This document shows positions 20,491 through 64,000 of a stretch of 64,000 bases of DNA, piece by piece (position 1 is the stretch's first letter; each line of letters starts with the position of its first letter). The DNA is taken from contig JBAZJW010000004.1 of NCBI GenBank assembly GCA_041651055.1, positions 2,018 to 66,017 on the forward strand. Reading direction: 5' to 3'. The position numbers and the translations under genes were made by a program. A model generated the notes under the pieces. The model made no database searches. It had not been told where the DNA came from and saw nothing but the letters and a program-made list of their open reading frames with translations. This stretch comes from Minisyncoccota bacterium. GTDB taxonomy: Bacteria; Patescibacteriota; Minisyncoccia; Phycocordibacterales; UBA5272.

Positions 20491-20505
20491 CCCAGGAGTC
20501 AAACT

Positions 20506-24589: not shown

Positions 24590-24932
24590 TATACGTAGAC
24601 TCTACGTCCATAACCGCATGATCCTAATGAAAGGATTTAATGAGGTTGGTATAGTTATAAGTATCTGGAACACGTCTATGCTACTGTTGCTTACGTTGTC
24701 TAACTTATTTGGACGGTCTATTAAAGTTGTGTGGATGGTGGTTATAGCTATACCTACTATTGTAGTTGTCTTTTATTTAGTAGGTCTCCTACTCTACAAA
24801 CGCGGCTTCATGAACGCGGAGTCAGAATGGATAGCAAGTGTAAGTCCTCCACATATGGACATAATCAAACGTCTAGACCACATAGAAAAGGAGCTACAGG
24901 ATGTCAAGACTAACATTCGGACACATAGTTAA
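24576..24932 (+). CDS. small membrane protein (2 TM), between the GT halves
   Basis: Hydrophobic segments IVISIWNTSMLLLLTL and VVWMVVIAIPTIVVVFYLVGLLLY. Confidence 0.4.
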   Translation: MKRSDIRRLYVHNRMILMKGFNEVGIVISIWNTSMLLLLTLSNLFGRSIKVVWMVVIAIPTIVVVFYLVGLLLYKRGFMNAESEWIASVSPPHMDIIKRLDHIEKELQDVKTNIRTHS

Positions 24933-25494
24933 CCACCGTGAGCCAAAAGGTAGTCGTTTCGTATTAGACGCTGTTCATAAAGCACGTATGTCAGGTGCAG
25001 ACTTCGGGTTTATATTTGCTGAACGTCTCTCATATCAGGAGGCTATGAAGTTATACCCCCAAATTGATGTGTTGCTTGAGCAGTTTGTTATAGGCTGGTA
25101 TGGTCTACAAGCATGTGAGTTTGCACTCATGGGTAAGCCGGTTGTAGTCTATCTACGTGAGGCTGACGGCCCGCCGCTGGTACCTAGCCAACTCTGGCAG
25201 GACATACCATTTATCAACGCCACTCCAGATCAAATCCCTGGTGTGATTATAAACATCACCAAGATGTCAACTCTTGCTCTAACTGAATTAGGAAAACGCG
25301 GCATAGCCTTCGTTAAGAAATATCATTCAAACACTGTAGTAACCCAACAAGTCATGAATGAGTTATTAACCCTACCAAATCACTCGGAATTAAACGAATC
25401 TCACGGAAAACTTTCCCCTAAGGAGGTGCATTGTGATGAAAAAGGTAATCCTATTAGCGTGGCTGCTTCAAATAGTGATCTACCCAAACTATAA
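24901..25494 (+). CDS. GT-B glycosyltransferase, C-terminal (donor-binding) half-like
   Basis: GHIVNHREPKGSRFVLDAV and LEQFVIGWYGLQACEFALMGKPVVV resemble the GT4 C-domain E-x7-E region. Confidence 0.5.
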   Translation: MSRLTFGHIVNHREPKGSRFVLDAVHKARMSGADFGFIFAERLSYQEAMKLYPQIDVLLEQFVIGWYGLQACEFALMGKPVVVYLREADGPPLVPSQLWQDIPFINATPDQIPGVIINITKMSTLALTELGKRGIAFVKKYHSNTVVTQQVMNELLTLPNHSELNESHGKLSPKEVHCDEKGNPISVAASNSDLPKL

Positions 25495-25684
25495 AGGCAT
25501 CCAAGGTGAGGTTGACTACTCTCGTCCAGCCATCGTGATTGACAAGGACGAAGTCTACCAAACCATACCAGGTACAACAGAACGTGACTACACTAAACCT
25601 AGCTACACTATAGAAGACAAACGTCCAGATACACGTAGACATCATCAACGTTACATAATCGACATGGAGGACCCGTTGGAATGA
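25436..25684 (+). CDS. small secreted/membrane protein (82 aa)
   Basis: AAGGAGGTG RBS. N-terminus KKVILLAWLLQIVIY is hydrophobic. Confidence 0.35.
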   Translation: MKKVILLAWLLQIVIYPNYKGIQGEVDYSRPAIVIDKDEVYQTIPGTTERDYTKPSYTIEDKRPDTRRHHQRYIIDMEDPLE

Positions 25685-26982
25685 ACATATTCACTATCAA
25701 CCTATCAGACATAACTATCCCACCAACTCGTCAACGTACTGACAAGGACGACAAATACATTGACCAGTTATCCGAATCCATCCGTATGATAGGCCAAATC
25801 AACCCTATTATACTTGACGAAACCAACACCCTCATAGCAGGTTGGTGTCGTATCAAGGCGTTTGAGTTGCTAGGACGCACCGAAATCTATGCACGTCGTT
25901 GGGAGGACTTGGACCAATATGAAAAAGAACTTATCGAGTTCGAAGAAAACGTTAGACGTAAAAATCTATCCTATAACGAACAGTTGCTCGCTGAACTTGC
26001 ACTCCATGAACGATTCCAGCAGTATCACGGCGTACAGAAGTCCCCATTTTACGGCCACGTTTCTAAAGGACGACCCAAATGGCGAGTGGAAGACATGGCT
26101 AACTTTATGGGATTCTCAATAGGTAAAATGAGTGAGCGTCTCAAGCTCGCACAAGAAATCCGCCGCAACCCTGAGATGGGTGACTTCAAGACCGAATCCC
26201 AAGCACGTCACGCTATGGAACGCAAACAAGCACAGGCTATACGTACGGTGTTAGCTGCTGTTAAGGTGAGTGAACAGAAGGAAACCACACCATCCAACGA
26301 ACCCAAACCATTATTTGAAACCTATCACCACGGTGACATCACCCTCATTAACGCAGACGCCAAACTCGTCATCCCTACCCTACCAGACGACTCTATAAGT
26401 TGCCTCATCACCGACCCGCCTTGGAACGTTCTCTTTGATGAGTCATTTGGTACAGACACCAAAATAGGACTGGAGTTAACTCATGAGACTCTCAGACTTC
26501 TATACCCAAAATTGCAGTCAGGATCATTATGTGTCATGTATTGTGCAACAAGACACCTTATCACAGGAAAAATTTATGAACTCGTTCAGTCTTGTGGTTA
26601 TGCTATCTACCCCACTATACATATATGGTACAAACCACACTCTGCAGGAAGTTCCATACCTTATCGTGAACTCAAGAACGACTACGAACCCGCGCTCTTA
26701 TTCTCAAAAGGACTCGGAAGAGATTTTCATAGTCCTATGTGGGCAGTTATTAGTGGTCTAGTAGAAGGCAAACGTTATCATACTGCACAGAAATGTACGG
26801 ACGTGCTGAAGCAACTCATTCAGAATTTCACGGTTGAAAATGAGTTAGTGATTGACCCGTTTATGGGTTCCGGACAGACGATGTTAGCCTGTCGTGCGTT
26901 GAAGCGTCGCGGATTGGGTATAGAAAAAGAACCTGACCATTATCATACTGCTATTTATCTAATGGAGGAACCTCATGTCTGA
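25681..26982 (+). CDS. ParB-like nuclease domain fused to beta-class DNA (N6-adenine/N4-cytosine) methyltransferase
   Basis: ParB-N block IPPTRQR...LSESIRMIGQINPIILDE. MTase motif IV ITDPPWNV, then motif I FMGSGQT near the C-terminus (beta-class order). Confidence 0.7.
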   Translation: MNIFTINLSDITIPPTRQRTDKDDKYIDQLSESIRMIGQINPIILDETNTLIAGWCRIKAFELLGRTEIYARRWEDLDQYEKELIEFEENVRRKNLSYNEQLLAELALHERFQQYHGVQKSPFYGHVSKGRPKWRVEDMANFMGFSIGKMSERLKLAQEIRRNPEMGDFKTESQARHAMERKQAQAIRTVLAAVKVSEQKETTPSNEPKPLFETYHHGDITLINADAKLVIPTLPDDSISCLITDPPWNVLFDESFGTDTKIGLELTHETLRLLYPKLQSGSLCVMYCATRHLITGKIYELVQSCGYAIYPTIHIWYKPHSAGSSIPYRELKNDYEPALLFSKGLGRDFHSPMWAVISGLVEGKRYHTAQKCTDVLKQLIQNFTVENELVIDPFMGSGQTMLACRALKRRGLGIEKEPDHYHTAIYLMEEPHV

Positions 26983-27169: not shown

Positions 27170-27353
27170 CACCCTACACGACCGCTTGATGGCCCTCACC
27201 ACACATCATGGTGAGTACACCCACTTGATTCGTAAAGCCATTCGCGAGTTCGTTACCAATGAGGAGGCCCGCCGTGGAATTGACAACACAACTAGACTTA
27301 CAATCCAAGTGCAGCAAACTAAAACTAGTCCTTCCAAAATCCCTAACCCATAA
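27135..27353 (+). CDS. ribbon-helix-helix (CopG/Arc-like) DNA-binding protein
   Basis: MKFIRAQITDTLHDRLMALTTHHGEYTHLIRKAIREFV shows a beta-alpha-alpha pattern. Its 3' end overlaps the polymerase start. Confidence 0.45.
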   Translation: MTMKFIRAQITDTLHDRLMALTTHHGEYTHLIRKAIREFVTNEEARRGIDNTTRLTIQVQQTKTSPSKIPNP

Positions 27354-29613
27354 ACGCCTAGCTATTGTTGGTGAAGCACTAGGCGCAGACGAGGAGGAAC
27401 AAGGTGATTACTTCGTTGGCAAGGCTGGGTTCTTACTTGATAAACTCCTTCGTGAGTGTGGTCTCATCCGTGATGCTATTCATATTACTAATGTTCTTAA
27501 AATACGTCCTCCGGATAACAAAGTACCCAGACTAGGTGAGTTAGGTCTAACCATAGATGACTTCGTCCCATATCTAAAGGAAGAACTCTCACTTGTCAAA
27601 CCTAACATTATCCTTGCATTAGGTGCCCCGGCCATGCAGGTTCTAACTGGCAAAGACGGTATAACCAAATGGCGCGGCTCGACGGTTCCTTGCACTTTAA
27701 TCCCAGGGAACATACCAGTTGTGATCACTCTTCACCCGTCGTATATACAGCGTGGTCAGTGGCACCTATATCCATATGTTAGGCATGACTTTGAAACCTT
27801 TGCAGATATGGGATTTGGGTTGCATAAACAAACCCAACCATTTGAAATGTTGATTGAGCCTACACTAACTCAAATTATGGACTACTTAAACGAAATATAC
27901 GAGACGTCCACTGAAACGTCCATAGACATAGAGACCGTTAACAAGACCCACATCACTTGTGTGGGGTTTACTAAGAATGAGAACTCGGCAATCTGCATAC
28001 CTTTTCGTTCGAAGGGTCTACGTAACCACTGGGCCGAGCATGAGCAACTACTTATACTTGAAGCGATGCGTCGTGTCTATCAGAAACCGGGCCTTGTCAA
28101 GATTGGTCAGAACTTCCTAGACTACGACGCCCATTACCTCTATCCGTTGTTAGGCTTCCCACGTGAACCCCTATTCGACACCCTCTATGCACATCAGTTA
28201 ATTCACGCCGACGCGCGTCATGACCTAGGGTTCATCATAAGTGTCTACACCGACATGCCCTACCATAAAGACGACGCCAAAGACTGGGAATCTAAAAAAC
28301 TCCCACACGATCAAGCCTTGTGGGAATACAACTGTCGTGATACAATAGGCACACACCGTGCTGCACTTAAACTAAGGAGCGACCTACATGAATTGGGACT
28401 CTACGGTTTTCTCACCGGCTACATCATGCCATTCAAACGCGCCCTATTTGAGATGGAGTGGAGAGGAATATACGTTGATCAAGAACTGCGTGGGAGAATG
28501 GCAAAAGACATTGAAGATAACCTTTTACCAGACGCATTGTGGTGCATCGAAGAACTCACAGGTAAAGCTATTAATCCAAACTCATCCAAGCAGGTTGGGG
28601 AGTACCTCAACGACGTCCTCCACATACCCGTTCCAAGGACAGACAAAGGCAACTACACAGTCGATGAGGATAAGTTAGAAGAACTCTTCGCGAGGTTTCC
28701 AAAGCATCGTCGTATCATGGAGATGTTTATATGCACCCGTAAGATGAAGGCTAAGGACTTGGGTACCTATCTCACTGCACCCTTATCAAGTGACGGTCGC
28801 CTACGCACTAGCTTTGGCATAGCTAAAACCGGTAGACTCACCTCTGGTACTAACCACCGTGGCGAGGGCACGAACCTCCAGAACCAGCCCAAGCGATTGC
28901 GCGTGGTTTATAAAGCCGACCCCGGTCGTAAGTTACTATGTCCTGACCTCGTAGGTGCTGAAGCCTTCGTAACTGTCTGGCAATCCGGGGCAAAGAAACT
29001 CAAAGCTGAGATGTTGAAAGGTAAAAAAATCCATGCTATCGTCGCCAACTGGATCACCGGCAAACCCATTAGCGAACTCCCACCCGAAACCTACCGCAAC
29101 ATAAAAGCCTGTGTGCATGGTAGCAACTATAAAATGGGCGTGAACAAATTCGCCAAGACCATAGGCTCAACCGTTGAAGAAGCCAAGCGTGTGCGTGAAC
29201 AATACTTTGCTGTGTTTCCTGAGTTGGCTGGGTATCATGCATGGGTAGAGAATGAAGTTGTCACCAAACGTAAACTCATCACGCCTTATGGACGGGTACG
29301 TATATTCACAGGCGACTTGAAAAAAGACGATATGTATTCTGCTTATTCACAAATTCCACAATCCACTATTGCGGACACAATAAATACAGGGATACTCGGT
29401 CTTTGGTTGGTGAAGCCAGACGATATATACTTACTGCTACAAGTACATGATGAAGTTGTAATAGAGCTACTTCCAGACAGAATTGAGTGGTTCAAACTGT
29501 ACATAGAAGCACATCTATCCAAACTACGCGAACTATGGATTGGAGATGATTATTTAGTTATTCCAGTGGACATAGGTAAGGCTAAGGACAGGTGGTACGG
29601 AGGTGAAAAGTAA
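27259..29613 (+). CDS. family A DNA polymerase with 3'-5' exonuclease domain and N-terminal family-4 UDG-like domain
   Basis: UDG-like GEALGADEEEQGDYFVGKAGFLLDKLL plus HPSY. Exo I IDIETV. Pol motif A LLCPDLVGAE, motif B RNIKACVHGSNYKMG, motif C LLQVHDEVV. Confidence 0.85.
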   Translation: MRRPAVELTTQLDLQSKCSKLKLVLPKSLTHKRLAIVGEALGADEEEQGDYFVGKAGFLLDKLLRECGLIRDAIHITNVLKIRPPDNKVPRLGELGLTIDDFVPYLKEELSLVKPNIILALGAPAMQVLTGKDGITKWRGSTVPCTLIPGNIPVVITLHPSYIQRGQWHLYPYVRHDFETFADMGFGLHKQTQPFEMLIEPTLTQIMDYLNEIYETSTETSIDIETVNKTHITCVGFTKNENSAICIPFRSKGLRNHWAEHEQLLILEAMRRVYQKPGLVKIGQNFLDYDAHYLYPLLGFPREPLFDTLYAHQLIHADARHDLGFIISVYTDMPYHKDDAKDWESKKLPHDQALWEYNCRDTIGTHRAALKLRSDLHELGLYGFLTGYIMPFKRALFEMEWRGIYVDQELRGRMAKDIEDNLLPDALWCIEELTGKAINPNSSKQVGEYLNDVLHIPVPRTDKGNYTVDEDKLEELFARFPKHRRIMEMFICTRKMKAKDLGTYLTAPLSSDGRLRTSFGIAKTGRLTSGTNHRGEGTNLQNQPKRLRVVYKADPGRKLLCPDLVGAEAFVTVWQSGAKKLKAEMLKGKKIHAIVANWITGKPISELPPETYRNIKACVHGSNYKMGVNKFAKTIGSTVEEAKRVREQYFAVFPELAGYHAWVENEVVTKRKLITPYGRVRIFTGDLKKDDMYSAYSQIPQSTIADTINTGILGLWLVKPDDIYLLLQVHDEVVIELLPDRIEWFKLYIEAHLSKLRELWIGDDYLVIPVDIGKAKDRWYGGEK

Positions 29614-42350: not shown

Positions 42351-43085
42351 TTATGTGGTTTCCTCTTTCTCCTGCTTAGGTGCAGCTACCTTTCGCTGTT
42401 GCTCAGTAATGTTGTCATATATAAACTCTGGTGGGAATGGTTCATGATCCCGGCCACCCGGAAAACGTGACTTAACACTAACCGTGAATTTGTCTAATTC
42501 CTCAGTATACTTTTTATACTCATCTACCATATCCTTAGCTCTACCAGGTTCACTAGCAAACGCAGCAAACCTAGTATACCTAAACAACACCATAACATGA
42601 CTATCAGGAATCCTAGGTACCGATGTAGACGTCAACGTCGCAGGTTCAAACGCCCCAATAATCGTATATTGACTATCCCCCTGATCGTCTATTGGACACG
42701 TCACGATAGCAGCATGTGCATAGTTAAATGGATTCAACAACGTATAATACTGCGCCCCGGCTGAGTCTACAGTACCTTCCCACCCACTTGCATAGAACTC
42801 AAATTGATCTAACATACACGGATGAATACGCTTGCCTGAGTTGCTGTCTGCTATATATAAGGGTGCTATACAAACTTCACTACTACTTCCCAACGGTACC
42901 GCAAAGAAGTTTCTAGTACCGTCTATGTTAATACTATCTCTGCGTTCGTCGAACAACGTGAACAACGCAGTAAGTTTGTATCCTTCGTTTAGACGTTCCA
43001 ATAAAAACGCGTCTGTGCGATAGATGTTGTCGTCTTCTAGAGAGGTTTTAATTGTCGTTAACAACTCTGAAGTTAGCATTATCAC
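42351..43085 (-). CDS. hypothetical tail-associated protein (244 aa)
   Basis: ATGA overlap with the upstream tailspike gene. Confidence 0.45.
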   Translation of the reverse strand: MIMLTSELLTTIKTSLEDDNIYRTDAFLLERLNEGYKLTALFTLFDERRDSINIDGTRNFFAVPLGSSSEVCIAPLYIADSNSGKRIHPCMLDQFEFYASGWEGTVDSAGAQYYTLLNPFNYAHAAIVTCPIDDQGDSQYTIIGAFEPATLTSTSVPRIPDSHVMVLFRYTRFAAFASEPGRAKDMVDEYKKYTEELDKFTVSVKSRFPGGRDHEPFPPEFIYDNITEQQRKVAAPKQEKEETT

Positions 43086-45523
43086 TCCTGCATATAAGGT
43101 CCAACTAGATCATAGAATGTTGTAAGTGGACTAGCCCCGGCGTGGTTCTGGTCAAACACAACCACCCCCACAGGAACCCAATCAGGGTTAGGTAACTTAG
43201 GCAACTGTGCAGATACTGACGCCGCTGCTGTAGGACCAACAATATAATGTCCAGGTAACCCACTTGATGAAGCTATACACAACAGGGCTTTCTTGTACTC
43301 ACCAGAACCCGTAGTTTCACTCGTCAAATCCCAAAAATCGTCTGTTGCGTCTTTTCCTTGAACTATTCTATTACCACCTATCGTAAATACTATATCATTA
43401 GTTGTCTTGACATAACCACCAGTTGACGCAGTAGAACACCCAGCGCCGGTTGTGCCAAATACATAATTATAACTAGTTGCTCTAACCGTCATATTATAGT
43501 TAGTTGCTAATGTCGTTCCCATGCTAATGTTCGTAGCAGCGTAAGGAACATCATTGCCACTAATGTTCATCTTACATGTTCCAGTTAGGAAACAAGAAGC
43601 AATACTTATTCCTTTCTCTCCACTTGAAGCGTCTAAGTATATTCTATTATTCTTACATACAACAGTGTCCGTATAATTATGTGGAGTAGCACCAGCGGCG
43701 GAATAACCAAAAGCAATACCAACCATATTATCAGCATACGTGTCATCTGGTATTCCTATTAGATTATTGACAATATCCACACCATGTCCATAAAAGAACC
43801 ATATAGAAACACCACCATTAACTGGATCAGGTCTAAATTGATTGTTAGCAATAAACACGTTTTTAGGTATCTCATTAGTTGTATTTGCATTACCGTTCAT
43901 GTTACCAATAGCAATACCGTGTTGAATGAACCTATCATAGTTGCAGTTAGTTATTTTAATGTTTTCACACACACTATCACTATCACCCATAATCCCAGTA
44001 GCCATACCATAACAGTTTTGAAAGTGCACCCCATCAACGGTGACATTAGCACTTCTAGCTATTTGCAACGCAGGTAGTAAACTAATTCCACCCGCAGCAT
44101 AAACTGTTGCACGGTGATTTTTTATCTCACCACCAATTATTCTAACATTTTTAGACCTACCAACATAGATACTATGTCTACCACAGTCATCAAATGTGTT
44201 ACCTATTAGATCAACATTACCTTCATGTGGACAGGTTATTACGACCGTGGCCCCGACACTTTCATCTGACAACGTCTCATTTACTGTCATGGACGTTCCA
44301 GTAACTCCAGTAACATTAAACGTAGCACAGTTGGTAGTTGCAGTTGCACCTGTAATGGTAATCTTATCACCTATCGCAAAACCATCCACTAAATACGACG
44401 CATTAGCATCACTAATAACTCCTCCTGACGCAGTGAAGCTAACGGTTGTAGACGATTTATATGTTCCAGTTGCTATATCAATTCCGTAACCTTGTCCGGC
44501 TGTGGATGTAGCATTAGCTCTAATGTCTTTTATTAGACAATTTTCAACTACTGCGTTTTTCCATGTACCACTAAGATTAGCATTTAACACTATACCTTGA
44601 TTCACATCATGTATATACAAGTTACTAAACCTAGTATTACTAATCGTCTGTCCAGATGCTGCACTAATTCCACCTTGAAAATCACTTATTGTACTATTAC
44701 CCTCACCTACGAGTTCGAGACCTTCTATAACTATATCATCACAAGTATCTGCTAACTGGAATATAACAGCAGTTGTGCTGGCTGCAGACAGTGTAATACT
44801 ACCATTACCTTTAATAGTTAAGTGTGTTTTACTCGTAATCGTCAACCCAGTAGCTATTGTATAATCCCCATCCATGATGATGGTTGAGTTAGTGGGAGCT
44901 GCTGTAATACACGCCTGTATGGGTACACCAGTTACTCCCCACCATTCAGGTCTAAATGTACCACCGGTGCTAAATGCGTAGGTTCCCGATCCAGAGAAGA
45001 TGTTTTGAGTTGGACCAGCTATAATGTTAGAAGGAGACGGCAACGTAACTGTTATTCCACCAGACGTAGAAAAATACGCCCCGTTTTCAAACTCAAACAT
45101 TATATTAGAATAACTACCTAAATTCAACGAAGTGGCAAACGCGTAGGTAGTTGTACTATCTGCTCTTGTGTGTGGAATTACAACGGTGGCTTTTTTAGTA
45201 GTTCCGATAGTTTCACATATCCCTTTCAATGTGCTACCGTAACCAGTTACTCCATGGTTAGCCTCAGATGAACTAACATAATATCGCATACGTTCATAGC
45301 TACCGTCACCTCTACTTAGGTAACTACTAACCGTCACACCTGTAGCAGTCATTGTGTAGTCTTTATTAATTACACCATCAATGGTTACTCCAGTGGCAGA
45401 CGTATATTCACTTATCACATCAGCCTTAAAGCTACCACCAGGACTCACTGCACAGGTACCAGTTGTAAACGTGTGCGTCGCGGTTATGCTACCGTTGACA
45501 CTTTCTGTTAGGTGTTTAGGCAT
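43082..45523 (-). CDS. tailspike-like protein with right-handed parallel beta-helix (pectate-lyase-like) repeats (813 aa)
   Basis: Repeats such as VENCLIKDIRANATS, NVRIIGGEIKNHRATVYAAGG and ISNTRFSNLYIHDVNQGIVLNANLSG. Confidence 0.6.
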   Translation of the reverse strand: MPKHLTESVNGSITATHTFTTGTCAVSPGGSFKADVISEYTSATGVTIDGVINKDYTMTATGVTVSSYLSRGDGSYERMRYYVSSSEANHGVTGYGSTLKGICETIGTTKKATVVIPHTRADSTTTYAFATSLNLGSYSNIMFEFENGAYFSTSGGITVTLPSPSNIIAGPTQNIFSGSGTYAFSTGGTFRPEWWGVTGVPIQACITAAPTNSTIIMDGDYTIATGLTITSKTHLTIKGNGSITLSAASTTAVIFQLADTCDDIVIEGLELVGEGNSTISDFQGGISAASGQTISNTRFSNLYIHDVNQGIVLNANLSGTWKNAVVENCLIKDIRANATSTAGQGYGIDIATGTYKSSTTVSFTASGGVISDANASYLVDGFAIGDKITITGATATTNCATFNVTGVTGTSMTVNETLSDESVGATVVITCPHEGNVDLIGNTFDDCGRHSIYVGRSKNVRIIGGEIKNHRATVYAAGGISLLPALQIARSANVTVDGVHFQNCYGMATGIMGDSDSVCENIKITNCNYDRFIQHGIAIGNMNGNANTTNEIPKNVFIANNQFRPDPVNGGVSIWFFYGHGVDIVNNLIGIPDDTYADNMVGIAFGYSAAGATPHNYTDTVVCKNNRIYLDASSGEKGISIASCFLTGTCKMNISGNDVPYAATNISMGTTLATNYNMTVRATSYNYVFGTTGAGCSTASTGGYVKTTNDIVFTIGGNRIVQGKDATDDFWDLTSETTGSGEYKKALLCIASSSGLPGHYIVGPTAAASVSAQLPKLPNPDWVPVGVVVFDQNHAGASPLTTFYDLVGPYMQE

Positions 45524-46425
45524 TAAATACCCTCCACATCATGACTAACCCTGAAGTCATCGTTCCATAAGGTACCACCGGTTACGTCTCTCACACGTCT
45601 TGGCATAGACGTCGTACCCATGTCCTCTATAATTGCATCACGAAGCAAATTAGCATAGTCCGTTTTGGCGTCACGTGCTAGGCCAATAAACGCAGGGTTT
45701 TGTGTGATAGTAAATACTAACCTATAACAATCCCACAATGCTCCTGCTTCAATTAACTCAGGTCTAAACACCGGCTCGTCGGTGTCTGCACTAAGATCAG
45801 CTACGTACTTCTTATAATGTACTGTTAGCACATAATCCTGATCTGGCACGGGCCATACTTCAAATGTCACCAACCCATCACCTTTGGTCTTACTAGTGAT
45901 CCTATAATGTGTAGGCGGCCCCGTAGACGTCCTCTCAGGATCGAGTGCGTTAAGATAATTCTCACTAACTTCTCCCAACCTACTTTGATATACCAAACTC
46001 ACAATCTCCCCAACATCAGCCACTGTAGGTGTATAATATGTCCTAAATATGCCATAGTTAGTTGACGCTGCCGTTGACCCGCCATATGCAGTTAGCAATA
46101 CAATATTCGTTGCGTCGGTTATTGTTGTGATTTCATATGGTTGGGACTCACTACCAAATCTAATAAAATCCCCAACTGCGAAGTTAGTAAACGTCGTCCC
46201 CGACCCAACCACTGCAGTACTGTCATGCGTCACAGTGACAGTGTCTACAGTCGACGTATTAGCATAATCACCCTCTAGCTTAACAGTCGTTCTATCCTTT
46301 AGAAACTCCCAATCCTCAGCACCTAGAATTTGTTTATACCTGATGTTAATTCGCTGCTTGACTACCGGCATTGACAACATCGGGACGAATTCTTTGAGGT
46401 TGAGTGCCATTAATCTTAGGTTCAT
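45523..46425 (-). CDS. hypothetical head-tail or tail protein (300 aa)
   Basis: Start may be an internal Met (46380 or 46371), which would reduce the overlap with the upstream gene. Confidence 0.45.
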   Translation of the reverse strand: MNLRLMALNLKEFVPMLSMPVVKQRINIRYKQILGAEDWEFLKDRTTVKLEGDYANTSTVDTVTVTHDSTAVVGSGTTFTNFAVGDFIRFGSESQPYEITTITDATNIVLLTAYGGSTAASTNYGIFRTYYTPTVADVGEIVSLVYQSRLGEVSENYLNALDPERTSTGPPTHYRITSKTKGDGLVTFEVWPVPDQDYVLTVHYKKYVADLSADTDEPVFRPELIEAGALWDCYRLVFTITQNPAFIGLARDAKTDYANLLRDAIIEDMGTTSMPRRVRDVTGGTLWNDDFRVSHDVEGI

Positions 46426-48025
46426 TTTTAGGCTCCATTTGACGTTTTACTTGATACCCACGAAGTAGAATCTGTTGTATTTGTCCTAGAAACTCTCTCG
46501 CTTCTTTGTAGCTAGGATTAAACTCTAGGCTTTTTTTAGCGTAGGCTTCGGCTGCCAGTAACCCACCCAATACTAACTGTGCTTTAGCTGCGTTTAACCA
46601 TAATTCCCAGAGTCTAATAGCACCATCATAACGATTAATACCTTCCATTGTGTAGTGCAATGCATGAATTGAGTCATTAGCAACTTGGTACATGCCACCT
46701 AGGTTGACCAATGAAAATCCATCAGTAGGCGAGTGTTTAATCGCTTTGTGGTAGTAGTCTACGCTAGAGGTTTTCTTCGCGCGAATGAAGTAATATTCAG
46801 TTAGTGTCTTATGAATGAGGTCTTTGTAGGTTGATAGTATTACAATAATTAATCCAGCTATTATGTACCATTCGGGTGTATACGTAGCATCACCTCGTAA
46901 GCATGCAAACAACACAAACCAGATCATTACGTTAGTGGGTTCTGTATGTAAGTTGTGCATAAATATACCAGATATTAATGCTGCTATTAGTGCACCTTTT
47001 AAAAGTAAGTCTGCATCTGATAGTAGTGCCATTATGATTAAACTCAAATATGCCACCAAACCAGGTATGCCTACATCACAGGCCATTTGAATGTAGTCAT
47101 TATGACACTTCTGCGGGTAGGGACAAGAGTAGTTACTTGGATCAAGAAACGCGCCGTTGGATTTGTTGTTGAGATCACGCTGTATGTAAGGTATTCTGCA
47201 CTTCAAGCAATCCAACCCAAGCCCGAATCCTGGGGTGAGTTTAATTTGTTCCCAAGCTATTCGCCAGTAGTTGAGTCTCTCCTTAAGTGTACCTTTGCTG
47301 TAGTCACTAATTAAATGCCTCCAGCCTGTTGAGAGTAACATCATTCCAATACCAATGCTCATTATAACAAGCAACGTATACACATCATCTGATTGAGTTG
47401 TTACCAACACAAACAACCCACCCACCACCATGCCTAGGTAACTACCTTTACATTTAGTAATCCAAACTGTATAACCTATTAATGCGCTGACTAGATACCA
47501 CCACCTAGACTCAGCACCCAGTAACAATGACAAAAAGAAACTCACCGCCATGAGGTTCCCAAGCATGTTAGTATTACCAATAAACCCTAGTGGAAATAGA
47601 TACTGAGGTAGTGCGTTGGATAAGTTGCGTAGTGGCTCTCGCTTAAAGACTCCCTGTAAGACAGCATACAAGCAATTAGCCACAATGCCTATCATAACAA
47701 TACCAAGACCAGTTAGATTAATACCATTAAACGCTGTCACTATGAACATAACCATCCCGGTCCAGACGCTTAACTCACTAACCCCAACATAGTGATATGG
47801 AGAAACTAACGTAGCCACGATCCACCACCCTACCATGCCTAACGTTATCCATATCACCATATCAGGTAAATAAATACTGGTACCTTCTACCCACCACTGG
47901 AGGAGGTATGCCACGCCAAGCAAAGGCATAAGTGCGCGTCTCAAGACCTCATAGGGTGCTCTAAATTGAGGCCCACTCATTAAGACGGTTAAAATGGCGA
48001 GTAGTATATAAGGTACCAGTTCCAT
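46346..48025 (-). CDS. Wzy_C-domain (O-antigen ligase / polymerase / O-oligosaccharyltransferase-like) polytopic membrane protein with C-terminal TPR-like repeats
   Basis: About 10-12 hydrophobic helices. Loop motif CHNDYIQMACDVGIPGL matches the Wzy_C H-N-x-Y-L...G-x-x-G signature. C-terminus has TPR-like helices (NPSYKEAREFLGQI). Confidence 0.55.
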   Translation of the reverse strand: MELVPYILLAILTVLMSGPQFRAPYEVLRRALMPLLGVAYLLQWWVEGTSIYLPDMVIWITLGMVGWWIVATLVSPYHYVGVSELSVWTGMVMFIVTAFNGINLTGLGIVMIGIVANCLYAVLQGVFKREPLRNLSNALPQYLFPLGFIGNTNMLGNLMAVSFFLSLLLGAESRWWYLVSALIGYTVWITKCKGSYLGMVVGGLFVLVTTQSDDVYTLLVIMSIGIGMMLLSTGWRHLISDYSKGTLKERLNYWRIAWEQIKLTPGFGLGLDCLKCRIPYIQRDLNNKSNGAFLDPSNYSCPYPQKCHNDYIQMACDVGIPGLVAYLSLIIMALLSDADLLLKGALIAALISGIFMHNLHTEPTNVMIWFVLFACLRGDATYTPEWYIIAGLIIVILSTYKDLIHKTLTEYYFIRAKKTSSVDYYHKAIKHSPTDGFSLVNLGGMYQVANDSIHALHYTMEGINRYDGAIRLWELWLNAAKAQLVLGGLLAAEAYAKKSLEFNPSYKEAREFLGQIQQILLRGYQVKRQMEPKNEPKINGTQPQRIRPDVVNAGSQAAN

Positions 48026-48035
48026 AAGGTTTCTC

Positions 48036-48287
48036 CTAAGCAGTTCCGATTACGAAGACATAGTAATACGACGTTGCAGCAGGTGCAGAACTAAACGTCA
48101 CAACATTCGTGGCAAAGCTAACTCCCAACCTGCCTTCAAATGCTGTGGTTTCCTGCACCCAACACGCGTCGATCGTACCCAATGGAGCCGTCCACGCTGT
48201 ATCGGAGGCATCGCCAGTCAGTTTATAACAAATAAACATCTGATTGGCTACAGGTACAGCAAAAATTGCAGTTTCAGTGAAAGCCAT
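48036..48287 (-). CDS. small structural protein (83 aa)
   Basis: Packed in the head/tail operon. Confidence 0.4.
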   Translation of the reverse strand: MAFTETAIFAVPVANQMFICYKLTGDASDTAWTAPLGTIDACWVQETTAFEGRLGVSFATNVVTFSSAPAATSYYYVFVIGTA

Positions 48288-48302: not shown

Positions 48303-49061
48303 TTATGGTGCAATCATAAGATAAACGGGTTTGTATTCTTGAGCCACACCAACCAACAGCTGAATCCCAAGCGGGGGCGTGGTGTCAACAGTGGTTCTAA
48401 CCGTGGTACCTGCAACCGTGTTACCGACTGCAAGCTCCACAGCAAACCCAGCAGACGGGGTACCTTCTGACCAGACGCACGCTACCCCCCAGGTTTGGAG
48501 CCAGTAGTAATAACTTGCAGCAACCGTGATAGGAGGTACACCAAGAATCCATTCAGTGATAGCGGTTGCGATAACCGTAGCGTAGTAAGGATTCCCAACC
48601 ATGGTTGCTTCTGATGCCGTGGTGAGTGCAGTCGCAATCGGGTCGTACAAGGTGATGTCGCAACTCGTTGCTGTCGTAGCGTTCGCCTTGTAGGATTTGA
48701 TCTTATACTGAATCCCCTCACCAGCGGCGTCGTTAATCTGCAACCAACCGTCTTTGTAAATGCTAGCGGTTGGTTCAGCAGCGGTTTCAACGGTCAACGT
48801 GTAGGCTCCTGCGTCTACAGCCGCAAGGACTTCCTTGTTGATCCAGTTAGCTGAGCTAATCTCGGCGCATTTCACGAACTTACCAGGAGCCAGTGCAACT
48901 GTCCCGTTGTAAGCATACCTAAACACCCGCCCGTCTGCAAATGCCAGTCTCGTCCCAAGAGGTGCTTGCTGAGTAGCAGACGCCTCGTAGATTCCCTGCG
49001 CGGGTGGGACAATAATGTGGTCGCCTTTGCGATACTCACGATACTCGTTCTTTGATGCCAT
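48303..49061 (-). CDS. head-associated structural protein (252 aa; decoration/minor capsid candidate)
   Basis: AAGGAG RBS (plus-strand CTCCTT at 49071-76). Follows the capsid gene after terminator-like hairpins. Confidence 0.45.
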   Translation of the reverse strand: MASKNEYREYRKGDHIIVPPAQGIYEASATQQAPLGTRLAFADGRVFRYAYNGTVALAPGKFVKCAEISSANWINKEVLAAVDAGAYTLTVETAAEPTASIYKDGWLQINDAAGEGIQYKIKSYKANATTATSCDITLYDPIATALTTASEATMVGNPYYATVIATAITEWILGVPPITVAASYYYWLQTWGVACVWSEGTPSAGFAVELAVGNTVAGTTVRTTVDTTPPLGIQLLVGVAQEYKPVYLMIAP

Positions 49062-49167: not shown

Positions 49168-50094
49168 TTAGCTGACAGATGAGATGTAACCATTCCATCT
49201 AGGTGCTGTGCAAATAAAAGACCCAGCCCACAGCAACTGCCTTACCCAAGCATCCTGGTTGATAGGAACCTTAGGTTCGGTCCAATACATATTGCGTTTC
49301 CTATGCACGACCATTTTCCAATAGTCCGTGTTAAGGATGAAAATATACCCACTTGGGCAGTAGTGGTCCACTACGATAGTGGCTTTGTTAAACGCGATCC
49401 CAGTGAAACCTACACGAGCAAGATCAGGAGCGGTGGTCAAGTCGCCACGCTGAGTGGGCTGAACCCGGTTCCAAATCTTATCGTAGATGTCCTGGGTCGT
49501 GATAATCAGATCAGGCTGTACGGCACCATCACAGCAGTTGCCGTACGCACTCTGGAGCATACTCATAGAGAACGCTCCACCTGTGCTGTCTACCTGACCG
49601 CGCCACCAAGAATACGACGTCTTGCTGATCTCACCATAGGTGCCCGTTGTAGCCAGTGCACTAATCAACGGCGGGATCGCTTTGGTGTCGCTCCAAGACG
49701 TATCAAAAATCGCCTCAGAGAACTTTTTAGTGAAGGTTTTCTGCGCGTTCTGCATTTTGGACTGAACGATAGACAGAATTTTCTCATCGCCCTCGACCTT
49801 GAGTTCAGTCTCACCATCCATGGTCACGTTGACCCACATCAGATACCAAGCATGCTTAGCCAACGTGGTGGTTTCAATAAGTGAGATATCGAACTCATCC
49901 AGTCCAGAATACCATCCTGAGTTCAAGTCACCATACAGCACTGGCACGTCGATCTTGGAACCGGAGTCGTAGGTGACTTTGTTTTTTGACATCAACCTAG
50001 TAAAAATCGGGGTTGAATAATAGAACTGATCCGTAAGAATGGGAATGTATTTCTCCCGTACGTGAGCATCAAGTTCTGAATAAGTAAGAGCCAT
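49168..50094 (-). CDS. probable major capsid protein (308 aa)
   Basis: Directly follows the scaffold-like gene and precedes the hairpins. Size typical for HK97-fold capsid proteins. No motif proof. Confidence 0.5.
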   Translation of the reverse strand: MALTYSELDAHVREKYIPILTDQFYYSTPIFTRLMSKNKVTYDSGSKIDVPVLYGDLNSGWYSGLDEFDISLIETTTLAKHAWYLMWVNVTMDGETELKVEGDEKILSIVQSKMQNAQKTFTKKFSEAIFDTSWSDTKAIPPLISALATTGTYGEISKTSYSWWRGQVDSTGGAFSMSMLQSAYGNCCDGAVQPDLIITTQDIYDKIWNRVQPTQRGDLTTAPDLARVGFTGIAFNKATIVVDHYCPSGYIFILNTDYWKMVVHRKRNMYWTEPKVPINQDAWVRQLLWAGSFICTAPRWNGYISSVS

Positions 50095-57886: not shown

Positions 57887-58062
57887 TTGGGTCTGTGGCC
57901 ACTCCTTATGGCATGTTTAGCGGGTTTGTTAACTTTAGATGCAAACTCACTAAGCTGCTTATGAGTCATGCTTAACACACCCCGGTTGCGCTTAAACAAC
58001 TTACTAGGCGCGTGTTTAGCGATTGCCATTAGTTTACGTTGCTTCTCACTTACTGCTGGCAT
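57883..58062 (-). CDS. small basic protein, DUF3008-like (59 aa)
   Basis: MPAVSEKQRKLMAIAKHAPSKLFKRNRGVLSMTHKQLSEFASKV. ATGA overlap with the terminase start. Overlaps the 3' end of the RlpA-like gene by 17 nt. Confidence 0.35.
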   Translation of the reverse strand: MPAVSEKQRKLMAIAKHAPSKLFKRNRGVLSMTHKQLSEFASKVNKPAKHAIRSGHRPK

Positions 58063-60730
58063 CTTTCACCGTTATGTGAGGCGGGTTTTTCTTGGCCTCT
58101 TTAATAATGTCGATTTTGATGTTAGCTACACCCTTTTTGGTTATGCCTAATTTGTCTGCTGCGGCCTTGGACAAGTCAAGCACCCTGTTAGGGTATTTAT
58201 ACGGGCCGCGGTCTGTGACTTCAACCACTACACTTTTATTAGTATGCTTATCCGTAACTTTGATCTTTGTGCCTAGCGGTAAGGTTCTATGTGCTGCGGT
58301 CATTTTGTTCATGTCAAAGGGTTTCTTAGGGTTACCTGCCATTGGTTTCCCGTGGAATTGCTTACCATACCATGAGGCTTTCGCACCTTGTGGGTGGGAG
58401 TCGTGGGTGGCAGACTCATCAAGTTTAGGTTTCTCGTCACGTTGAGCAAGTGCCTTGAGTGCTTGCGTGGTTGTGAGTGAGCCTTGTGCGATACGTTGGC
58501 CTTTGATGGTGATGGATTGTTTTAGGTCAGGGGAGAGGGGGAGGTACCAGACTTCTACTTGTTCACCACGTGCCTTTTCATACGCATCAACTAAATTACC
58601 ACGAGCGTCTCGCAACTGTTGATAAGTTGGTGCTGCATTTGGATCAGCAATAGTTGTTTTTATTTTAACTGGCCTAACCCCATACTCCCTCTCAGCCTCT
58701 CTAACCATGTACTCATCATAAACCTTCTCGAAAAACTTACCACCTACCAGGAAGTCCCCGGTTGCGCCGTCGCCGGATATAGCACGACCCGTGCCAGGCC
58801 AGTTCTCACTACGCATCTTTGCAACTAAAGCTGACGCGTCTTCTCTGTATCTTACAATGTCAGTTAACTCACCCATATCGTCGAATATTTTGTACCTGTC
58901 ATCAGCTTTTTCGTAATATGCACCTCCAGCACGATCTTCAAGTGAATATGACTCTGAATCCTTTGGTTTATTTTTAGACGCTGCTGTTGCAATTTTCTCC
59001 TGCTCCTCTACAATCCTAGCGACGTTCTTACCAGCGTTATCTTGCAACTGCTTCATATTCACATAACCCTGATCGAACGTTCTGCCATTAGGAGTCTCAA
59101 AGTGGAGAGTGTACTTACCAGTCTTTAAGTCCTTAGTCCAGTTGAAACTATTGACTAGCTTGTTGTATCTATCTGCTACGATTCTGCCGGTTGACCATGT
59201 TACTGAGTCCTTACCTTCTCGTACGGCTGTGTCGACCCACTCCTTTAATCCAAGTTTGGCCCATTTGAGGTCTTTGAAAGGGGCGGGTGGAATGTTACTA
59301 CGTTGTCCGAGATAACCCTGTGCATAGTTCACTAATGAATCTCTATCATATGCACCATTTATTTTTGCACCTTCTTCGTCTCTAAGTATGTAGTATTCCC
59401 TGTTGTTTAAATCTGGCCTACCAGGAATGTTAGGAGGTTCCTTAGAGATCGTCCAACCAGTAGGTAGTTCGTCTTTTCCAATAGGTGTTGCATACCCCTC
59501 CTCCATCGCCTTCTGGTGTAATGAACTCTGCGTCTCATCCAAGTGCTTAGCTAACTCACCATTAGGCAACTTTCTATCGTGACCACGTGTGAACATAAAC
59601 GCATTATCAGCTACGTTACCTGGCCAGTCATGTGGCTCCACGTAGCGTAGGCCACCTTCAGGAGTGAAGTGGAAGAGACGTTCTTGATAGGTTCCTGGGA
59701 TGTGACCGGGGAGGTTGAAGGAGGAGTAGTTTTCGGGGCCGTACTTACCACCAGCACTACGTTTCTCTAACTTTTCCATCGCATTTGCAACAGCCATTCT
59801 TCTATTTTGCAAACGCGTTATATCCGGTTGCCATATTTCGTATCGCTCTCGATCCGGTGCTTTTTTATACAACTCGTCGAGTTCGTTGGTTGTCCTAGTA
59901 GCTATTCGTTCCAATCTATCACGTGCAGCCTGCAACTTGGGATCAATCGGACCAAGCACACTCGGCTCCCCAGTCTCTTTTAGACTCTTACTCCTCACCA
60001 ACTGCAACATCTCATCCCTACTGACTCTCTGATCACCTAGAGATTTCAGTTTCTGAAGCAAGCCAGTGTAATTGAGTTCCTCCATGTTGATGAGGTTTTT
60101 GTCGGTTGCATACTTCAATGTGCTTAGCATCCCAGTAGCTTTAGGGTTGTCTGGGATGAAGAGTTTACCAATCTGGCCGGTTTCTAGGGCACGTTCGAGT
60201 GGGGAGTAGAACTTAGGACTGCTTGTTAAGCCTGTCTTTGCACCACCAGCACCCCCACCAAACGGTATCGTAGCTAAGTCAAAGTTAGCCATTCCTATAG
60301 ACGTGCGTAACGTCTCACTTGCTTCCTTGGGGTCCATCGCTTGGGTGTAGGTTAACTCTCTACCAGTTTCAGGGTCTTTGAACTTCCCACCAGCAGCTAC
60401 ATGCGCCCAAAGGTTATAGGCGTTGTTGATGCTACTAACTACTGCTCCTGGTAGTGCCAACGCAAACTTAATCGGCGCACCAACTATCGCACCCATAACT
60501 TCGCCTGTGGTGCGGAGCCAGTCTGGTTGAGGTGCAGGTTGAGTAGGCGATTCATAAGCCGGGGGTATGGAGACGAAGGGTTTGTCACCAAGGGGGAGTT
60601 GGTTGGTTTGGTCCCCAGCCCCGGCTTGTGGGTTAGCAACTACACCTTCTGGCGTAGCTGCCATTGCATCACGTTGGTCCTTCCACTTCCTAAATCTCTC
60701 AACCTCAATGTCCGTAGGCTCAGTTCGCAC
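58046..60730 (-). CDS. large protein with C-terminal RlpA-like double-psi beta-barrel (DPBB) lytic-transglycosylase-type domain (894 aa)
   Basis: C-terminus ASWYGKQFHGKPMAGNPKKPFDMNKMTAAHRTLPLGTKIKVTDKHTNKSVVVEVTDRGPYKYPNRVLDLSKAAADKLG is the canonical RlpA/DPBB_1 pattern. Confidence 0.65.
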   Translation of the reverse strand: MRTEPTDIEVERFRKWKDQRDAMAATPEGVVANPQAGAGDQTNQLPLGDKPFVSIPPAYESPTQPAPQPDWLRTTGEVMGAIVGAPIKFALALPGAVVSSINNAYNLWAHVAAGGKFKDPETGRELTYTQAMDPKEASETLRTSIGMANFDLATIPFGGGAGGAKTGLTSSPKFYSPLERALETGQIGKLFIPDNPKATGMLSTLKYATDKNLINMEELNYTGLLQKLKSLGDQRVSRDEMLQLVRSKSLKETGEPSVLGPIDPKLQAARDRLERIATRTTNELDELYKKAPDRERYEIWQPDITRLQNRRMAVANAMEKLEKRSAGGKYGPENYSSFNLPGHIPGTYQERLFHFTPEGGLRYVEPHDWPGNVADNAFMFTRGHDRKLPNGELAKHLDETQSSLHQKAMEEGYATPIGKDELPTGWTISKEPPNIPGRPDLNNREYYILRDEEGAKINGAYDRDSLVNYAQGYLGQRSNIPPAPFKDLKWAKLGLKEWVDTAVREGKDSVTWSTGRIVADRYNKLVNSFNWTKDLKTGKYTLHFETPNGRTFDQGYVNMKQLQDNAGKNVARIVEEQEKIATAASKNKPKDSESYSLEDRAGGAYYEKADDRYKIFDDMGELTDIVRYREDASALVAKMRSENWPGTGRAISGDGATGDFLVGGKFFEKVYDEYMVREAEREYGVRPVKIKTTIADPNAAPTYQQLRDARGNLVDAYEKARGEQVEVWYLPLSPDLKQSITIKGQRIAQGSLTTTQALKALAQRDEKPKLDESATHDSHPQGAKASWYGKQFHGKPMAGNPKKPFDMNKMTAAHRTLPLGTKIKVTDKHTNKSVVVEVTDRGPYKYPNRVLDLSKAAADKLGITKKGVANIKIDIIKEAKKNPPHITVKDASSK

Positions 60731-62694: not shown

Positions 62695-64000
62695 CTATTT
62701 GAACGTCGTCCCGTTCATAATGCAGCCTTGGGCGGTTGGGGGTGTTGAGCCATACTCATACGCCCCAATGTCGTACCCTGCCCCCTGCGGCCTAGTGATA
62801 ACTGTCGCTAGTCCCGCTCCGTTAATGCAGCCGTTATATGGACTTCCGAGGGTGTAGCCGTTATTAATCGCATCACCTGACGAAATCGCAAAATAGGTAG
62901 TATTTGGGATCATGTCGGTCCCATATGTTCCGCTGAAGCCCGTTGGGATAGTACCGCCTGTGAAAGCTGGGTTGGTCTTTTTTGCTGAAGTCTCCAAACT
63001 GGTTGTGAAGTCATTGACTCCACCATTTCTATGGTAGTTGACACCACCAGATTCAACGTGAGTATCGGTGGCACTTGATGATCTATAGTACAGATTATTA
63101 CTGTGATTTATGTGACTAAAACTGTTTGTTGAGTCCTCCCCAACAAGTATTGTGGAGGTTGAATTTAAAATATTGTTCTTAAAATCAATAGTACCAGTCG
63201 ATGCAGTCACCAACGTCCTAAATAGATGTGTAGGTGAGTAACCACCTTGGAGCATGGTATTATTATAAATTCCGATATTAGCACCTACATAATTACCTGA
63301 TGTTAAAGACACCATCCCTCCAATGATGATGTTTCCATAAATATATACTGAATCAATCGGGTTGTTATAAGCCGCTGGTATTCCTATTGCATTTGGACTT
63401 GCATAGATGATATTATATCTAAACACTACATTTTCTGGAGATCCATAATATCCACTATAGGTAGGGAGTCCATACGTCCCTACTGCAAATGCTGAAAAAT
63501 TCCCAATGATATTGTAGATTGTATTGTACTCTAATGTGATATTGTCAGCATTGTTAAAACAGTCTATTCCATTTCCCCTATTTGTACCAGATACCTGTCC
63601 AGTATCATGAACAGTGTTGCCTCTAACTGTTATGTTATAATTGCGGTTTGGTATATTGTCTTGCCAGTAATGATAGATAGTTATTCCCTCATGACCCGTA
63701 TGATGGACATGACAATTTTTTATAGTTACATTACTAACTGTGTGAGAGTCTCTCGGCCCAAGATGTATCCCATAATAAAACTGCGACCCACTGTCAGTTG
63801 TTCTATTATTTGTGACCTCACAGTTATCTATTGTTATATCAGATATAGTATAATATAGACCAGCCCTGATCTGCGAGATGTTATGATTGTTGCCATCGAC
63901 TTTGAAACCCTGGAAAACTACGTTACTCTGGTAAATATCAACCATAGACCAACCACTGCTATCTGTAGATGCTTGTAAAGTTGCTCTAGTTCCTGTCCCC
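62695..64000 (-). CDS. beta-helix (pectin-lyase-fold) tailspike/depolymerase-like protein, 5' partial (N-terminus beyond window end)
   Basis: Frame stays open upstream of the M at 63945, to the window edge. Repeats such as VSNVTIKNCHVHHTGHEGITIYHY and NITVRGNTVHDTGQVSG. Confidence 0.6.
   Translation of the reverse strand, partial: GTGTRATLQASTDSSGWSMVDIYQSNVVFQGFKVDGNNHNISQIRAGLYYTISDITIDNCEVTNNRTTDSGSQFYYGIHLGPRDSHTVSNVTIKNCHVHHTGHEGITIYHYWQDNIPNRNYNITVRGNTVHDTGQVSGTNRGNGIDCFNNADNITLEYNTIYNIIGNFSAFAVGTYGLPTYSGYYGSPENVVFRYNIIYASPNAIGIPAAYNNPIDSVYIYGNIIIGGMVSLTSGNYVGANIGIYNNTMLQGGYSPTHLFRTLVTASTGTIDFKNNILNSTSTILVGEDSTNSFSHINHSNNLYYRSSSATDTHVESGGVNYHRNGGVNDFTTSLETSAKKTNPAFTGGTIPTGFSGTYGTDMIPNTTYFAISSGDAINNGYTLGSPYNGCINGAGLATVITRPQGAGYDIGAYEYGSTPPTAQGCIMNGTTFK

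Follow-up and report, generated by a model that had tools for sequence, protein, structure and literature searches.

The window analysed here is a stretch of 64,000 nucleotides from contig JBAZJW010000004.1, with positions counted from its first letter. Its reverse strand encodes, within the late operon of what looks like a phage genome, a membrane protein of the Wzy_C superfamily that ends in a tetratricopeptide repeat (TPR) domain. As judged from hidden Markov model (HMM) matches, the predicted fold and the conserved catalytic residues, the gene product is a catalytically intact, WaaL-fold member of that superfamily. From the charge distribution of its family, we predict that the phage class is probably inserted upside down relative to the canonical enzymes, with the N-terminus outside and both the active site and the TPR domain in the cytoplasm. 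We tentatively propose that the enzyme works from the cytoplasmic side and moves glycans linked to undecaprenyl pyrophosphate (Und-PP) onto co-expressed virion proteins, as an accessory function. The features discussed below are listed in Table 1.

The Pfam Wzy_C model (PF04932) matches the protein with E = 3.7e-14 and 53.2 bits, above the gathering cutoff of 31.7, and the closest fold is that of WaaL (PDB ID: 7TPJ). The AlphaFold2 (AF2) model has 13 transmembrane (TM) helices at residues 4–21, 25–47, 55–74, 78–98, 104–126, 152–170, 175–190, 193–209, 213–233, 316–335, 340–355, 362–376 and 386–404. Nine of these precede the large catalytic loop and four follow it, an arrangement (9+4) that dG-scale segmentation also returned. 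Owing to the 13th helix, the catalytic loop and the TPR domain share one side of the membrane. This domain is made of three hairpins and a capping helix. Pfam TPR models scored below threshold on the protein, and a phmmer search of the region against consensus-TPR proteins in the PDB gave E = 4.5e-22 for a 16-repeat protein and 1.5e-5 for CTPR3. The domain also matches the TPRs of OGT and SPINDLY. An initial annotation of this DNA had claimed a Wzy_C protein with the loop signature of that family, a TPR-like C-terminus, 10–12 TM helices and a place in the late structural operon between head and tail genes. Our results bear out this description except for the helix count, which is 13 by both methods in what is indeed a polytopic protein.

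The loop signature is the motif HNDYIQMACDVGIPGL at residues 308–323. We looked specifically for an absence of Wzy_C homology and for a loss of the loop His and Arg; the Wzy_C model was matched by the window protein and by 59 of 59 relatives, and H308 and R250 are invariant. Among these 59 relatives, which extend down to 16% identity, N151, G268 and G319 are invariant as well, and G150, D310, P433, D467 and G468 are each kept in at least 90%. The ten closest homologues share H308-N309-D310, R250, Q313, H357 and the GFxGNxN motif without exception. When aligned with hhalign, the HND motif falls on H338-N-E of E. coli WaaL, at a score that is not significant. Identity between relatives is highest in the catalytic loop (49–81%), and the TPR domain is among the lowest regions (23–72%). 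Catalysis thus appears, from this pattern of conservation, to be under selection.

The charged residues of the membrane domain suggest an unusual orientation. Within the short loops defined by the AF2 helices, the window protein carries +8/−3 charges on the catalytic side and +3/−10 on the opposite side. Its N-terminal tail (MEL) contains no Lys or Arg (K/R), and the N-terminal tails of the phage-type proteins are likewise devoid of them. By the positive-inside rule, such an inverted bias predicts an outward N-terminus and a cytoplasmic catalytic loop and TPR domain. We used dG-scale segmentation to extend the comparison to the family. It was right for the controls E. coli WaaL (12 TM helices, N-in), WecA (N-out) and ArnT (N-in), and wrong for WzxE and RfbX; D3 Wzy-beta was uninformative as a control of charge bias (ambiguous segmentation, 12 versus 14). 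E. coli WaaL has 18 K/R on its cytoplasmic side versus 10 on the other. The profile matches were split by this segmentation into two classes. Tail-less proteins, of 380–445 residues and 9+3 TM helices, carry 5–8 K/R on the catalytic side and 13–25 opposite; tail-bearing proteins, of 480–710 residues and 9+4 TM helices, carry 8–16 and 0–4, respectively.

The difference persisted in two further tests. With classes defined by architecture only and counts limited to the N-terminal nine-helix bundle, an excess of K/R on the catalytic side was seen in 56 of 62 tail-bearing proteins versus 0 of 14 tail-less ones (Mann–Whitney p = 1e-7), and the bundle of E. coli WaaL has 6 versus 13. The charge bias is bimodally distributed. 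Because the segmentation of individual sequences is sensitive to the parameters chosen, the test was repeated with loop boundaries transferred from the AF2 helices by alignment. This left 110 of 116 tail-bearing proteins inverted (K/R 8.0 on the catalytic side versus 3.0), and 11 of 14 tail-less proteins were canonical (5.4 versus 10.7). Four proteins (P0061, P0093, P0142 and P0146) combine the same architecture, Wzy_C with a clear TPR that includes a CcmH/CycH-type match, with a canonical bias. The same Wzy_C–TPR architecture therefore exists in both charge regimes.

The gene order around the Wzy_C gene is SU10-type capsid, p252, p83, Wzy_C, SU10-type adaptor and β-helix tailspike-like protein. 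Since its Shine–Dalgarno sequence overlaps the stop codon of p83, and since promoter-like and terminator-like sites between 42.5 and 51.5 kb do not exceed the shuffled expectation, the Wzy_C gene is best described as an integral member of the late operon, in which it is translationally coupled. Its G+C fraction of 0.42 equals that of the downstream tail genes. The final 80 nucleotides (46346–46425) are shared, in another frame, with the start of the adaptor open reading frame (ORF). At the related locus L001, similarity in the adaptor frame reaches upstream of the called start into the 3′ end of the Wzy_C gene, and the conserved C-terminal tail of the Wzy_C protein may be partly dual coding with the adaptor ORF. 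The protein is the sole polytopic membrane protein encoded in the window, where no phage flippase or priming transferase was found. Neither an integrase or lysogeny module nor a recognisable endolysin/holin pair was found among the window ORFs scanned, the latter in a scan that was not exhaustive; small ORFs with one or two TM helices, which are possible holins, are present. Comparison of p252, p83 and the capsid protein with PDB sequences gave nothing meaningful.

This position recurs in relatives. The SU10-like lineage keeps the order capsid, p252, p83, none or one extra ORF, Wzy_C (the window, L001, L002/L004, L003, L005, L007 and L008), and the gene for P0040 adjoins an SU10 adaptor. P0100 belongs to a phage with a T7-type portal and GP7/Bbp16 (BPP-1-type) capsid genes. 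P0140 lies in a siphovirus-like module, with a Phage_capsid_4 capsid gene on one side and genes for tail terminator, tail tube and tape measure on the other. The gene for P0143 comes after a P22-type coat gene, from which one small ORF separates it. Across these four unrelated capsid lineages (SU10-type, BPP-1-type (GP7/Bbp16), Phage_capsid_4 siphovirus and P22-coat), the Wzy_C gene is thus found 1–7 called ORFs 3′ of the capsid gene and ahead of the tail genes.

The gene is accessory (moron-like): at one fixed slot, some close relatives have it and others lack it. It occupies the slot in the window, L001, L003, L025, L030, L033 and L007; it is absent after p83 in L027, L041, L038/L039 and L032, whose capsid proteins are 63–68% identical, and these close relatives have no other polytopic ORF in its place. 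A core structural gene is thereby ruled out. When 80 viral loci were collected by a portal-profile scan, the Wzy_C gene was present only in the three already known. Comparison with L003 gave identities of 92% for the capsid protein, 87% for p83, 82% for the adaptor and 59% for the Wzy_C protein, which indicates that the Wzy_C gene evolves faster than its core neighbours. The slot between Wzy_C and adaptor also holds about 7 kb of extra genes in L002 (11610–18600), including those for a Laminin_G_3 and a Peptidase_M23 protein, and is therefore an accessory-gene hotspot.

Enzymes of the Wzy_C superfamily take a glycan off Und-PP and pass it en bloc to an acceptor at the surface of the membrane. 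Und-PP-linked glycans are built on the inner leaflet and flipped afterwards. If the active site and the TPR domain are in the cytoplasm, the phage enzyme would use such glycans on the inner leaflet, before flipping, and the TPR domain would recruit a cytoplasmic acceptor protein. The likeliest acceptors would be head or decoration proteins made from the same late operon; that the acceptor is a protein, and a virion protein, we infer. A cytoplasmic catalytic side fits the late co-expression with head proteins, the position after the capsid gene and the lack of a phage flippase or priming enzyme, and these points together would suggest that virion proteins are glycosylated en bloc, as an accessory trait. 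The fuller version, in which an inverted branch of the superfamily attaches unflipped host glycans en bloc to assembling virion proteins, is in our estimate somewhat unlikely to hold in all its parts. The initial annotation had suggested a PglL-like O-oligosaccharyltransferase acting on virion proteins. The PglL likeness was not borne out, as the protein has no PglL_A (PF15864) or Wzy_C_2 (PF11846) match at E ≤ 0.1 and Wzy_C_2 was matched by 1 of 59 relatives. Virion glycosylation would be topologically impossible for a canonical, periplasm-facing enzyme, and that part of the suggestion survives only through the inverted positive-inside pattern of the family.

Several points weigh against a cytoplasmic enzyme that glycosylates virions. 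A cytoplasmic active site is not known to us from any Wzy_C or GT-C enzyme. The predicted topology derives solely from the positive-inside rule and from a crude, parameter-sensitive predictor that made errors on some controls, and part of the charge on the catalytic side is functional, as it is in WaaL. Conservation of the TPR domain is among the poorest in the protein (51% identity in a comparison that gave 92% for the capsid protein), and such fast evolution is easier to reconcile with a variable partner in the host than with a conserved one in the capsid. The gene is dispensable, being missing from the same slot in close relatives, and no conserved small partner or acceptor is common to all capsid lineages. 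We considered p83 in this role, as a candidate acceptor or decoration protein. The p83 family is limited to the SU10-like lineage, and the p83 HMM matches no locus of the other capsid types, which rejects it as a small partner gene that travels with Wzy_C. Three tandem p83 paralogues are present in L027 (12544–13321), a close relative without the Wzy_C gene.

The same fast evolution of gene and TPR domain, which resembles that of host-interaction genes, and the accessory status would suit a canonical, outward-facing enzyme that ligates an Und-PP-linked glycan late in infection onto an acceptor of the host envelope (pilin, S-layer protein, lipid A-core or a wall polymer) and so masks the receptor. 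The benefit would be superinfection exclusion, or progeny that do not bind again to dying cells and debris. A periplasmic orientation is common to all Wzy_C enzymes characterised so far, including WaaL, which provides the closest fold; the TPR domain of the pilin-modifying enzyme TfpW is periplasmic, cellular-looking Wzy_C–TPR proteins with canonical bias exist, and the β-helix tailspike-like proteins of the phage suggest a glycan receptor. Against this, the bias is inverted in 110 of 116 members, unlike in the canonical relatives and E. coli WaaL, and what would have to be the cytoplasmic face of the window protein carries only +3/−10. A late gene leaves little time for surface remodelling, the ORFs scanned contain no integrase or lysogeny module, and the repeated placement after the capsid gene in four capsid lineages is left unexplained. 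We consider this orientation and role doubtful, though for a canonical enzyme such late modification of a host envelope protein or glycan would be the likeliest function. Remodelling of host O-antigen or receptors, which the initial annotation had also put forward, is likewise conceivable. The inverted bias could instead serve an enzyme that faces the cytoplasm and acts as a sink for inner-leaflet Und-PP-linked precursors, which it would hydrolyse or transfer to an irrelevant acceptor. The flow of precursors for capsule, O-antigen, wall polymer or peptidoglycan would then stop late in infection, easing release or lysis or blocking receptor synthesis. Conserved catalytic residues, late expression, accessory status and the lack of a recognisable endolysin/holin pair in the non-exhaustive ORF scan agree with a sink. 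A simple sink has no need of a TPR domain, yet the domain is conserved throughout the family; the window does contain possible holins, and the scheme is without precedent. It is improbable in our view.

Serotype conversion, with a polymerase or ligase of O-antigen expressed in the lysogen as in phage D3, has the advantage that Wzy_C genes are known from phages (D3 Wzy-beta, phi297 and VG_p25 of VarioGold). A tblastn search found no similarity to any deposited phage. The D3 and VarioGold genes lie in a conversion module, whereas the window gene is translationally coupled inside the late operon, and D3 Wzy-beta (386 residues) lacks both the TPR domain and the 13th TM helix. We regard such an enzyme as very improbable here. 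Classical lysogenic conversion in general is unlikely, given the late-operon position, the lack of an integrase among the ORFs scanned and the lack of a tblastn relation to D3 Wzy-beta. The TPR domain, its possibly cytoplasmic location and the position between head and tail modules would also be expected of a degenerate, non-catalytic membrane tether that holds assembling heads or tails through the TPR. The conservation of R250, H308, D310 and G150-N151, with the catalytic loop as the most conserved region, implies retained catalysis, and close relatives dispense with the gene; a tether is the least credible of these explanations, with hardly any weight.

If virion glycosylation by a cytoplasm-facing enzyme is correct, it would be a previously undescribed route to glycosylated phage particles and would make this protein the first cytoplasm-facing member of the Wzy_C class, in which WaaL, Wzy and PglL act on the outer face after flipping. 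The family would, moreover, clearly exemplify the natural inversion of the topology of an entire 13-TM enzyme. Tailed phages would possess a one-gene means of coating their virions with any Und-PP-linked glycan of the host, with possible effects on particle stability, adsorption, recognition by immune systems or predators, and host range. Should the orientation be canonical, the family would still be a large unannotated class of late-expressed, envelope-modifying phage enzymes that is absent from cultured phages, PHROGs and BFVD. Either way, the protein is a candidate tool for bioconjugate glycoengineering, where a flippase-independent oligosaccharyltransferase would be valuable.

Table 1. Features of the Wzy_C–TPR gene and its neighbours (window positions; residue numbers refer to the Wzy_C–TPR protein).
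Feature	Position	Strand	Remarks
Whole Wzy_C–TPR ORF	46346..48025	−	559 aa, ATG start; Wzy_C/WaaL-fold membrane domain, 13th TM helix, three TPR repeats, disordered tail
Membrane domain, residues 1–404	46814..48025	−	13 helices
Pfam Wzy_C domain, residues 179–327	47045..47491	−	
G150-N151-x-N153 motif	47567..47578	−	TM5–TM6 loop, on the side of the catalytic loop; N151 invariant in 59 relatives
Large catalytic loop TM9–TM10, residues 234–315	47081..47326	−	two amphipathic helices
R250	47276..47278	−	candidate pyrophosphate-binding Arg; invariant in 59 relatives
H308-N309-D310	47096..47104	−	H308 invariant, D310 in at least 90% of 59 relatives
Extra 13th TM helix, residues 386–404	46814..46870	−	no counterpart in the 12-TM WaaL
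TPR domain, residues 405–525	46451..46813	−	three hairpins and capping helix, directly after TM13
Disordered C-terminal tail, residues 526–559	46346..46450	−	pLDDT (AF2 confidence score) below 50
Shine–Dalgarno sequence AGGAG	48033..48037	−	7 nt ahead of the start codon (ATG at 48025); shares bases with the TAG stop codon of the 83-aa p83 gene
p83	48036..48287	−	small protein directly upstream of the Wzy_C gene
p252	48303..49061	−	conserved 252-aa protein between capsid gene and p83
Major capsid protein, SU10_MCP	49168..50094	−	phrog_9953, E = 2.9e-45
Head–tail adaptor, SU10_adaptor	45523..46425	−	directly downstream of the Wzy_C gene
β-helix tailspike-like protein	43082..45523	−	downstream

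The family is large and so far confined to metagenomes. An exhaustive search with the profile of the TM domain gave 55 cluster representatives at E ≤ 1e-30, 672 at E ≤ 1e-10 and 9854 at E ≤ 1e-3, and the top 130 matches are mostly 480–710 residues long; a word-indexed search returned ten proteins only, the product of the window itself among them. The UniRef members carry viral-metagenome labels, and IMG/VR lists the relatives of the window as viral genomes. We take the source of these viral-metagenome records to be groundwater. A tblastn search of 50,697 records of deposited phages gave no match, whether the query was the window protein or one of three distant members of the family. PHROGs and NCBIfam yielded no useful match (no NCBIfam ligase model among them), and BFVD contained no structural match at E ≤ 1e-3. 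The GTDB genomes held a single match, a protein of 23% identity in a BRC1 metagenome-assembled genome (MAG), which gave no prophage or host clue.

NCBI names the window product an O-antigen ligase of a Candidatus Paceibacterota MAG. The 66,682-bp contig itself resembles a near-complete podovirus-like phage genome, with portal, capsid, adaptor, tailspike-like proteins, PolA and a DNA methylase. Its presence in this MAG may be an artefact of binning; otherwise it hints weakly at a host from the candidate phyla radiation (CPR). The MAG label rests on binning only, and to our knowledge the Paceibacterota are without lipopolysaccharide (LPS).

Other parts of the window and of the related loci were also inspected. 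A nine-gene cluster at 19029–25494 (+) encodes an Asn-synthase-like PP-loop enzyme, two radical-SAM/SPASM proteins (SAM, S-adenosylmethionine), an RmlD-like reductase/epimerase, a weakly matching GT1-like protein, a SAM methyltransferase and three unknowns, one of them with two TM helices. The cluster could supply a modified sugar that enters a glycan or serves DNA hypermodification. It is directly followed by a gene at 25681–26982 (+) in which a ParB_N domain is fused to an N6/N4 DNA methylase. The family-A DNA polymerase at 27259–29613 (+) has an N-terminal domain of the uracil-DNA-glycosylase superfamily fused to its exonuclease and polymerase domains. When IMG/VR was scanned with the radical-SAM and PolA proteins for co-occurrence of the nine-gene cluster with the Wzy_C gene, the related contigs were not retrieved. 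An 894-residue protein encoded at 58046–60730 (−) ends in a DPBB_1 (RlpA-like lytic transglycosylase) domain and may be a virion-associated cell-wall-degrading protein; its gene lies upstream of a 587-residue ORF homologous to a gene in L002 with a weak Terminase_6C match. No classical endolysin was recognised among the window ORFs scanned.

Two right-handed β-helix proteins resemble tailspikes or depolymerases, namely the one downstream of the adaptor gene (Table 1) and a second at 62695–63945 (−). Only the N-terminal ~190 residues of the first, which is 813 residues long, are conserved in relatives, as expected if receptor-binding modules are swapped. LAGLIDADG homing-endonuclease ORFs are found in or beside the capsid gene in L008 (8001–10000), L003 (8476–8934) and L007 (3000–4600). 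The capsid match ends at residue 211 in L008 and is followed by a LAGLIDADG_2 ORF, and only residues 88–308 are matched in L007. The major capsid gene of the relatives may accordingly be interrupted by introns or inteins.

The clade appears to be new. In the literature available to us we found no description of the phage-specific clade, of its 13-TM and TPR architecture with an inverted charge signature or of its recurrent slot between capsid and tail genes, nor of any Wzy_C–TPR gene in a phage structural module, and no link of O-antigen ligase genes to CPR or groundwater viruses. The nearest structural relative is WaaL, as known from Cupriavidus metallidurans (cryo-EM, 7TPJ) and E. coli K-12. 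It shares the Pfam family, the nine TM helices followed by a large loop with two helices, the terminal His-Asn-Asp/Glu motif and the conserved Arg. Identity is only 14%, and WaaL lacks the extra helix and the TPR domain. The charge bias is opposite (8 versus 3 in the window protein, 6 versus 13 in E. coli WaaL), and WaaL is encoded in an LPS core cluster rather than in a phage structural operon. The HMM profile of the window TM domain matches no PDB sequence; together with the missing NCBIfam ligase match and a count of 13 instead of 12 TM helices, this speaks against a WaaL in the strict sense.

PglL, PilO (TfpO) and PglS belong to the Wzy_C superfamily and attach Und-PP-linked glycans en bloc to Ser/Thr residues of proteins, the same chemistry as we propose for the phage protein. 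Their site of action is the periplasm, and they lack a TPR domain; the domain matches given above speak against membership in their group. TfpW of P. aeruginosa, a pilin oligosaccharyltransferase, is a polytopic enzyme that uses lipid-linked sugars. Its TM helices are odd in number, and its C-terminal TPR domain, most like that of OGT, is on the catalytic side. The eukaryotic TMTC O-mannosyltransferases share this layout. The likeness of TfpW to the window protein lies in the helix parity and the placement of the TPR domain, and it makes TfpW a precedent for a transferase of this layout that targets a protein. TfpW has an ArnT-like GT-C fold, a TPR domain that was experimentally found to be periplasmic and a host gene beside pilA. 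Since the window protein has the WaaL-type fold and not the ArnT/PMT-type GT-C fold with its DxD/DDx motif in loop 1, the resemblance to TfpW and TMTC is one of layout only.

The phage-encoded Wzy_C membrane proteins D3 Wzy-beta, phi297 and VG_p25 of VarioGold (PMC9658991) come from temperate phages, have no TPR domain and show no detectable similarity to the window protein. In D3 and VarioGold, the gene lies beside attP/integrase or lysis genes and in the opposite orientation to the late genes. The same layout as in the window protein (Wzy_C, 9+4 TM helices, C-terminal TPR) is seen in the cellular-type proteins P0061, P0093, P0142 and P0146, which match the family profile with E = 1e-18 to 1e-31. 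They differ in their canonical bias, for example 7 versus 23 and 9 versus 24, and are uncharacterised. P0099, a related protein of canonical bias without a Pfam TPR match, occurs in a phage-like context and not beside a capsid gene.

Virions of mycobacteriophages are reportedly glycosylated by soluble glycosyltransferases encoded beside the capsid genes, as Freeman and colleagues are said to have described in 2023. Those enzymes are of the GT-A/GT-B type and add nucleotide sugars stepwise, whereas the protein studied here is a membrane enzyme that would transfer a lipid-linked glycan en bloc. Glycosylation of mycobacteriophage virions is also mentioned in PMC11256854. With accessory genes beside the capsid genes and glycosylation of capsid or tail proteins in the cytoplasm, the mycobacteriophage systems would be the functional analogue of cytoplasm-facing virion glycosylation by the Wzy_C–TPR protein, and the outcome would be comparable to their glycosylated capsids.

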